64,000 nucleotides of DNA from a virus (Duplodnaviria > Heunggongvirae > Uroviricota > Caudoviricetes): the IMG/VR virus record IMGVR_UViG_2537562189_000009; one strand, 5' to 3'. Both the position numbers and the translations under genes were made by a program. Under the pieces are notes generated by a model. That model was not told the origin of the DNA. It did no database searches and was given only the letters and a program-made list of their open reading frames with translations. This document shows positions 44,888 to 45,028 of the stretch, one piece after another; position 1 is the first letter of the stretch; each line of letters opens with the position of its first letter.

Positions 44888-45028
44888 CTACTGCTTACAC
44901 TGTAAGAACGCCGCAAACTCCGCTCCCCACAAATTCAGCCGGAACTCACACAGCGAACCGTGCAACATCCAGATAGTGAAGATAACCGTCATACAAATTG
45001 TGACGGTGATAAGCGATTTTTGCGACAT
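44888..45028 (-). CDS. Hok-family (HokA-like) type I toxin, 46 aa, absent from the ORF track
   Basis: MSQKSLITVTICMTVIFTIWMLHGSLCEFRLNLWGAEFAAFLQCKQ; SD AAGGAG 9 nt upstream of ATG at 45028; conserved hok pattern TM-helix...SLCE..R...E.AAFL. Confidence 0.6.
   Translation of the reverse strand: MSQKSLITVTICMTVIFTIWMLHGSLCEFRLNLWGAEFAAFLQCKQ

Follow-up and report, generated by a model that had tools for sequence, protein, structure and literature searches.

Among the described systems closest to the locus analysed here are hok/sok of plasmid R1 and hokW-sokW of Sakai prophage 5 (Sp5). [quoted passage not shown] On the side of the toxins, a recent preprint grouped Hok peptides into clusters of 60% identity and, in its family logo, gives M1, C16, T18, L30, C31, E32 and E41 as conserved positions of a peptide of some 50 residues with one N-terminal transmembrane helix (Escalera-Maurer et al., bioRxiv 10.1101/2025.08.07.668861, 2025/26). 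As stated in its text, Mok, Sok and the mRNA elements were deliberately kept outside that analysis.

In the window, by which we mean the whole 64,000-nucleotide stretch of viral DNA that was analysed, the initial annotation had pointed to a 46-codon minus-strand ORF with a strong SD, located between an Eib-like and a Lom-like gene, and had assigned it to the Hok/Gef family. The ORF is present at 44888-45028 and its peptide is identical to the one claimed; AAGGAG at 45043-45038 is spaced by 9 nt from the ATG, and the neighbours are a YadA/Eib-like gene (43325..44536, minus strand) and an Ail/Lom-family gene (45260..45994, minus strand). The analysis suggests that the ORF is the toxin part of a larger unit. 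This unit is probably a complete type I toxin-antitoxin module of the hok/Sok kind, a moron that sits just downstream of lom in a Stx-type short-tailed prophage. The features on which this reading is built are collected in Table 1.

Table 1. Features of the hok locus and of its predicted antisense gene (window coordinates; mRNA positions counted from the first nucleotide of the tac-like element)
Feature	Position	Strand	Remarks
lom terminator	45218..45236	-	upstream boundary of the hok module; terminator-like site in scan
hok promoter -35, TTGCCC	45206..45211	-	TTGCC(C/G) conserved in loci with an intact 5' end
hok promoter -10, TAAATT	45183..45188	-	TA(A/G)ATT conserved; in distant loci homology starts near this point
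Predicted full-length hok mRNA core, tac to fbi	44823..45176	-	354 nt; 3' end putative
tac-like 5' element, GGGUGCC	45170..45176	-	pairs with fbi (full length) or with the ucb-like box (truncated fold)
ucb-like box, AAAGGCCCC	45118..45126	-	mRNA 51-59; in the full-length fold it pairs with GAGGCC as the 5' half of the leader hairpin
GAGGCC, at the mok-SD position of hokW-type loci	45091..45096	-	mRNA 81-86; by-eye alignment with the hokW-type leader
Predicted Sok-target loop, CUUAAGCAA	45069..45077	-	mRNA 100-108; in the full-length fold paired to mRNA 323-336
dcb/anti-SD, GCGCCUCUCU	45048..45057	-	mRNA 120-129; full-length fold: partner of the hok SD
hok Shine-Dalgarno, AAGGAG	45038..45043	-	9 nt to ATG; sequestered in a local hairpin
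hok-family toxin CDS	44888..45028	-	46 aa, ATG start; translation MSQKSLITVTICMTVIFTIWMLHGSLCEFRLNLWGAEFAAFLQCKQ
In-CDS box	44908..44916	-	mRNA 261-269; pairs with the hok AUG region
Post-stop hairpin, GACGGGGAC-GAAA-GUCCCCGUC	44857..44878	-	likely stop for 3' trimming; also found in the terminator-site scan
fbi-like 3' element, UCAGCCGAUAUGGCACCC	44823..44840	-	pairs with mRNA 1-17
Predicted Sok promoter -35, TTGACT	45034..45039	+	variants TTGCTC, TTGCCT and TTTACT at the same place elsewhere
Predicted Sok promoter -10, TAACCT	45058..45063	+	TAACCT or TATCCT in 19/19 loci
Predicted Sok-like antisense RNA	45068..45128	+	about 60 nt; placed from the promoter and by analogy to sokW/Sok; ends putative

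What makes this ORF a member of the Hok family? The Pfam profile HOK_GEF (PF01848) scores 33.2 bits on the 46-residue peptide against a gathering score of 22 (E = 4e-8), with an alignment that spans profile positions 6-42 of 42, and PHROG 251 ('MokW-like host killing', moron category) matches with 85.8 bits (E = 2.8e-24). The alignment to family profiles, which the initial annotation had proposed as a check, was thus positive, and the assignment to Hok/Gef holds both by the curated Pfam threshold and by the hok-type mRNA architecture of the locus described below. Inspection against the alignment rows given in the preprint places the residues of the family logo at M1, C12, T14, L26, C27, E28 and E37 (bioRxiv 10.1101/2025.08.07.668861), and the hydrophobic stretch LITVTICMTVIFTIWML provides, again by inspection, the single N-terminal transmembrane helix; the second cysteine, C44, is hard-coded. 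Moreover, the ORF is kept in 19 out of 19 distinct loci examined, with a median dN/dS of 0.31 overall and of 0.15 in its C-terminal half, and every locus compared has a strong hok SD at optimal spacing. That 44888..45028 is a Hok-family toxin gene is therefore practically certain.

The designation 'HokA-like' is appropriate only in so far as K-12 HokA is the closest named relative, with a BLASTP identity of 45% (over 47 residues) as compared to 31% for the HokW-type peptide of the window and 30% for R1 Hok. The NCBIfam HokA equivalog model NF007290 gives 38.4 bits, below its cutoff of 89, and the preprint, where its cluster assignments are given, lists K-12 HokA (93_1378) in a separate 60%-identity cluster, 93 (bioRxiv 10.1101/2025.08.07.668861). 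Filing the gene as HokA was therefore rejected, and profile scores and identities taken together place the peptide in the Hok family, nearer to HokA than to any other named member, yet distinct from HokA. Common to the peptide and to K-12 HokA (b4455) are the N-terminus M-P/S-Q-K and the hard-coding of both cysteines, in LCE and in a C-terminal CK, the latter point being made for HokA in the text of the preprint (bioRxiv 10.1101/2025.08.07.668861). HokA differs in length (50 instead of 46 residues), in its reconstructed leader, which starts with GGGTGCTTGAGACTG... and is unlike the leader of the 46-residue locus, and in the mokA remnant annotated in K-12, whereas the window locus has no mok frame. 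As a template for the leader, K-12 hokA was likewise discarded, being too short and too different. The 46-residue gene belongs to a Hok sub-family of its own (cluster 72, PHROG 251).

This sub-family is widespread and the gene itself is already known. The initial annotation had called it unlisted, which is correct for the ORF list with its cutoff of 60 residues and not for the public record, as the PGAP pipeline of NCBI annotates it. The surrounding 601-nt region is found with 100% identity in several STEC genomes by megablast, labelled there 'Hok/Gef family protein' beside Ail/Lom; the protein is WP_000078907.1, and the same protein is annotated in EDL933. A homologue of the size of the transcript occurs in 1750 of 5426 complete E. 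coli genomes, and homologous loci were found in 198 phage records, mostly of Stx-converting phages, under labels that vary between 'small toxic polypeptide', 'MokW-like host killing' and hypothetical. A protein search returned 46-residue relatives, every one named Hok/Gef, from E. coli, Shigella and Salmonella. In Stx-type phages the members follow lom; in lambdoid prophages they stand between gpJ and the tail-fibre gene, and in P2-like prophages (found in E. coli, Shigella and Salmonella and on one plasmid) they come behind ogr at the prophage end. A fourth kind of site is the O157 urease island. This spread over four contexts is the pattern of a self-contained moron.

In addition, the peptide appears in the preprint under the name 72_1589, as a member of the 'high-abundance cluster' 72; the two amino acid sequences are identical, leaving no difference at the peptide level. 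It is listed in Table S2 and was cloned for a toxicity assay as pAZ3::72_1589 (LRP157), and the text and the legend to Fig. S4 name only 19_179, 60_1482 and 69_1540 as non-toxic constructs, so that by exclusion, in the terms of the preprint's own statement, 72_1589 is reported to be toxic on induction (bioRxiv 10.1101/2025.08.07.668861). A lack of toxicity on overexpression, which the initial annotation had named as the outcome that would speak against the gene, was in effect looked for by others with the opposite outcome, as read by exclusion from the preprint. With its RefSeq annotation, a named phage protein family and an identical peptide reported as toxic in that source, the gene as such is not new.

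How is the toxin gene expressed? A strict sigma-70 scan detected no promoter on either strand at the hok locus, and promoters were instead called by conservation across loci. In loci with an intact 5' end the sense strand shows the promoter-like pattern TTGCC(C/G)-17-TA(A/G)ATT, followed after 6 nt by GGGTGCC. At the other end, homology among distant relatives stops abruptly after GGCACCC, and in the window the terminator scan revealed no intrinsic sense-strand terminator after fbi. In one Salmonella member unrelated sequence has replaced the 5' approximately 60 nt, and the hok promoter and tac are gone; the 46-residue ORF, the predicted antisense promoter and fbi are still present, and this copy appears to be decaying or re-wired.

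A transcript with these ends (about 354-357 nt in the window) is predicted to fold with a minimum free energy (MFE) of -152.9 kcal/mol (z = -7.2) into a structure closed by pairing of its two termini, in which the 5' end GGGUGCC..CGGCUGA lies on the 3' end UCAGCCG..GGCACCC. The search for fold-back elements, which the initial annotation had also recommended, was thus positive. RNAalifold on 18 transcripts yields 81 consensus pairs, with 96.4% of cells paired as compared to 38-43% when the partners are slid, and compensatory changes in 18 pairs as compared to 2-5 in the slid controls; across the 18 loci, none of 500 shuffles matches the observed pairing or covariation score. For the tac/fbi helix itself (helix 1) the support is conservation and not covariation, because the helix is nearly invariant: the GGGUGCC-GGCACCC pairing is kept in 97.6% of cells in the 18 loci. 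By inspection, the two arms of its inner extension change together from lineage to lineage: lom-type loci have CGGCUGA/UCAGCCG, Salmonella loci CGAC/GUCG. Within the closing helix, GCCCC and GAGGC form a leader hairpin, and leader positions 98-112 engage a 3' segment in a long-range helix (helix 5) with three covarying pairs. The hok SD is held in a local hairpin by an invariant CCUCU, and the GCCUC of the anti-SD is invariant as well. The AUG region pairs with the in-CDS box in helix 8, whose 9 pairs are 100% paired and 7 of them invariant, and TTTGCGGCGTTCTT around this box is invariant including the third codon positions. The post-stop hairpin (helix 15) has 9 pairs that are 100% paired, 5 of them with compensatory changes; by analogy with R1 it is likely to be the stop for 3' trimming. 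Consistent with a hok-type leader, Rfam model RF01794 (sok/hok leader) aligns over its full length at 45015-45176 on the minus strand with 36.4 bits (E = 2e-6); this score is below the gathering value of 59, and a scan at gathering level recovered the other two leaders of the window and not this one.

In-silico shortening of the 3' end by 30-45 nt changes this picture. In the truncated fold, tac re-pairs with AAAGGCCCC, GAGGCC pairs with the anti-SD strand of the SD hairpin (GCGCCUC, mRNA 120-126), and a hairpin loop now exposes CUUAAGCAA. The tac/ucb pairing is part of the MFE structure of the truncated transcript in 13 of 18 loci and GAGGC/GCCUC in 12 of 18, and across loci the helices of the truncated fold are 89.7% paired as compared to 37-56% with slid partners. 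There is one clear compensatory pair, U10-A51, which five Salmonella loci replace by C-G. In the shortened transcript mRNA 97-112 and the AUG are predicted to be more accessible; the hok SD is still partly to largely paired in many of the predicted truncated folds. From these models we infer a switch from tac/fbi to tac/ucb pairing upon 3' processing of the hok mRNA.

A regulator for such a switch would be encoded on the opposite strand. The initial annotation had suggested a search for a Sok-like RNA; what came of it is a putative antisense gene, called from the conservation of its promoter elements. All 19 loci have the -35/-10 pair with a spacing of 17-18 nt (18 nt in the window), while its -10 hexamer TAACCT agrees with TATAAT at only 3 of 6 positions. 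On the sense strand the same hexamer reads AGGTTA and is unpaired in the consensus structure and non-coding, yet invariant except for one T/A position, which fits a constraint imposed from the opposite strand. Moreover, TAACCT with the adjoining GCCTCT is homologous to the sokW -10 as deduced by setting primers YO-421/422 against the hokW-type sequence of the window (PMC8621323). The 'pro-less' mutant of sokW lost antitoxin activity (PMC8621323), and judged from the same primers the hexamer altered in it appears to be TAACCT. The predicted RNA folds into a single-stranded 5' tail of about 20 nt, a 16-bp hairpin and a final UUUCC, and the CUUAAGCAA loop of the truncated hok mRNA is complementary to the single-stranded tail. 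A literature search for transcriptomic evidence on the predicted Sok in EHEC found nothing specific.

Compared with R1 hok/sok (PMC9841398), the locus has a recognisable tac/fbi fold-back, predicted ucb- and dcb-like alternative pairings, a post-stop hairpin, an SD hairpin with a GCCUCU anti-SD, and a predicted antisense promoter that overlaps the region of the hok SD; its predicted elements correspond one-to-one to R1 tac, fbi, ucb, the mok-SD position and dcb. It differs from R1 in the peptide (30% identity), in the absence of a mok ORF, in the first approximately 45 nt of the leader, which diverge from the Rfam consensus and leave the score sub-threshold, and in its setting, a prophage instead of a plasmid, without a terminator after fbi in the window. 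With hokW-sokW (PMC8621323) it shares the family, the type of phage, the nature of a prophage moron, and the predicted antisense -10 TAACCT beside a GCCUCU anti-SD. HokW has 51 residues, an in-frame mokW and, in its window version, 31% identity to the 46-residue peptide, and it is encoded at a separate locus some 13-14 kb away, the window counterpart lying at 30572-30727. The possibility that the 46-residue locus is the published hokW was rejected, as primers YO-357, YO-369, YO-561 and YO-597 match 30572..30727 and its flanks.

A departure from both systems is the missing mok frame. In the window, stops in all three frames within mRNA 102-133 close the leader upstream of the hok SD, and in 13 further loci, i.e. 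in 14 of 19, no leader ORF reaches the hok SD either. The frame is open to the SD in the remaining 5 of 19, where the start codons differ (AUG17, AUG45, GUG3). The sub-family is thus without a conserved mok. As substitutes for mok, uORFs starting at AUG45/GUG47 were rejected because they are absent in Salmonella and STEC1587 and vary in their end points, and the long AUG17 frames of some P2-type loci because they are not conserved. It follows that in the window either control is independent of mok or the copy is poorly translated. The chances that control is mok-independent rather than the copy silent are about even; mok-independent control is favoured over silence since ORF, RNA structure and both promoters are conserved across genera and contexts.

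If the locus is a complete hok/Sok-type module, it could be imagined to work as follows. The full-length mRNA would be translationally inert, with tac and fbi paired, the SD sequestered by the invariant CCUCU of the anti-SD and the AUG by the in-CDS box. Slow trimming of the 3' end up to the post-stop hairpin would remove fbi, whereupon tac would pair with AAAGGCCCC and the freed GAGGCC with the anti-SD region, and this re-pairing would loosen the translation-initiation region of hok and expose the CUUAAGCAA loop. A constitutive, unstable Sok-like RNA of about 60 nt, transcribed from TTGACT-18-TAACCT, would bind to this loop and to GAGGCC, keeping the toxin mRNA shut and probably marking it for RNase III. 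Once the supply of antisense RNA ends, through loss of the prophage, induction or a block of transcription, Hok would be made and would depolarise the inner membrane. Extending this to the sub-family, we tentatively propose, as a possibility that falls short of an even chance, that cluster 72 represents a widespread functional mok-less form of hok/Sok in which the switch works on the hok SD itself, by way of the former mok-SD segment GAGGCC and the anti-SD, and in which Sok captures GAGGCC instead of blocking mok. On this view the module, as a second and overlooked hok of Sp5/933W-type Stx phages, may also be redundant with hokW-sokW where phage release or prophage stability is concerned.

Other explanations of the locus have to be weighed against this module. 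Six-frame translations are rich in short hydrophobic ORFs, and this one, itself short, could have arisen by chance with a fortuitous Hok-like motif. The curated profile matches to Pfam and PHROG, the conservation under purifying selection, the covarying hok-type RNA architecture and the earlier annotation of the gene refute this reading, to which only a negligible probability can be assigned. Alternatively, the toxin ORF may be intact and the locus translationally silent, a mok-less remnant as proposed for several chromosomal hok loci of K-12. In 14 of 19 loci, the window among them, stops close every frame ahead of the hok SD, R1 genetics require mok translation up to that point (PMC9841398), the SD is partly paired in the predicted truncated folds, and chromosomal hokA, hokB and hokC were reported to be unable to mediate post-segregational killing, as cited in the text of the preprint (bioRxiv 10.1101/2025.08.07.668861). 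Difficult to reconcile with silence are an ORF kept at a dN/dS of 0.15-0.31 in E. coli and Salmonella and in four mobile contexts, compensatory base-pair changes throughout the mRNA, the retention of both promoters, and an SD that is strong and optimally spaced in all loci. A silent locus is therefore considered unlikely.

A further reading, which is compatible with addiction, sees the module mainly as a helper of lysis and release or as a superinfection or abortive-infection device: late read-through or loss of Sok at induction would lead to synthesis of Hok and to faster lysis, as reported for hokW-sokW. Indeed hokW-sokW, which resides in the same type of phage, doubles the release of Sp5 after mitomycin C (PMC8621323), and the 46-residue gene shares its strand with the late tail genes, it and its relatives being placed at the distal end of the late region whether the prophage is Stx-type, lambdoid (gpJ to tail fibre) or P2-like (after ogr). 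Moreover, R1 hok/sok lowers the plating of T4 (cited in PMC8621323). On the other hand, a PADLOC search for defence systems returned no matching model at the locus, and hok is not enriched near defence systems according to a section title of the preprint (bioRxiv 10.1101/2025.08.07.668861). A principal role of this kind is possible, albeit rather doubtful.

What then is gained by the analysis of a hok-type module in this prophage? The finding itself is of little consequence, as the gene is annotated, the family named and the identical peptide reported as toxic in the preprint's toxicity data (bioRxiv 10.1101/2025.08.07.668861); the non-trivial residue consists only of the apparently mok-less regulation and of a second, unstudied hok in Sp5-type phages. 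The regulatory anatomy of the abundant 46-residue sub-family was so far undescribed, and its apparent mok-less design challenges the universality of mok coupling. As to Sp5, the Stx2 phage in which hokW-sokW was studied, its reference record VT2-Sakai (NC_000902) has an unannotated gap of 430 nt between lom and orf66 that holds an identical 46-residue ORF (44701-44841) behind a leader about 98% identical to that of the window, so that Sp5 carries two hok loci of which only one was studied. This second, unannotated hok bears on the modest two-fold phenotype of the single hokW-sokW deletion. The published phenotypes of delta-hokW-sokW were measured with the second hok locus intact.

The count of four hok-family genes in 64 kb given in the initial annotation is correct, the genes being spread over two prophages. 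Two identical ORFs of 51 residues encode HokD (3554..3709 and 4168..4323, minus strand) inside a tandem duplication of about 615 nt, and a HokW-type gene lies at 30572..30727 on the plus strand; these three ORFs score 77-83 bits on Pfam HOK_GEF. Genomic context was read against the nearly collinear genome NZ_CM143728.1, STEC2018-553 having been set aside as non-collinear with the window outside the prophage, and in this comparison the core genes ynfF-rspB separate the two prophages. The first, lambdoid and Rac/Qin-like, carries dicB, DicF and an ABC-three-component/DUF2326 system in addition to hokD; the second is of the Stx-type short-tailed kind, and in it lie LPD38, tail genes and lom together with two hok-family genes, the HokW-type gene and the 46-residue hok.

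Several smaller observations concern these neighbourhoods. The YadA/Eib-like gene (403 aa) and its AT-rich upstream region are, as compared to EDL933 and VT2-Sakai, inserted directly after fbi. The insertion of this cassette lies right behind GGCACCCGTTT and has displaced the orf66 homologue to 42836..43213 (minus strand); in the uninterrupted arrangement of 933W/Sp5 the ATG of the next ORF, orf66, is located within fbi (GATATGGCACCC). At the HokW-type locus of the window (30500-30575, plus strand) the stretch that contains the mokW start in Sp5, CCATGCTGAACACATG (primer YO-422), is replaced by CATACTAGACACATG, and the canonical AUG of mokW is therefore absent; the longest in-frame ORF there begins with a GTG at 30545. 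The peptide encoded in the tandem duplication (window 3200-4380, minus strand) is identical to K-12 HokD, and the collinear genome NZ_CM143728.1 has a single hokD as compared to two in the window. Of the two, the copy at 4168-4323 has a full hok leader ahead of it (Rfam match 4318-4492), while the copy at 3554-3709 retains only about 44 nt of leader and has a 63-residue ORF (3760-3951) upstream. Beside hokD in the Rac/Qin-like prophage, the DUF2326 protein is encoded by a 574-residue ORF at 4769-6493 (minus strand), and in the collinear genome its gene adjoins annotations as 'ABC-three component system', a candidate defence system. Rfam matches at gathering level further comprise two tRNAs at the start of the window (107-180 and 267-339, minus strand), DicF at 11661-11712 (plus strand, 72.5 bits) and, near the edge of the Stx-type prophage, sRNA-Xcc1 at 27150-27238 (plus strand, 71 bits).
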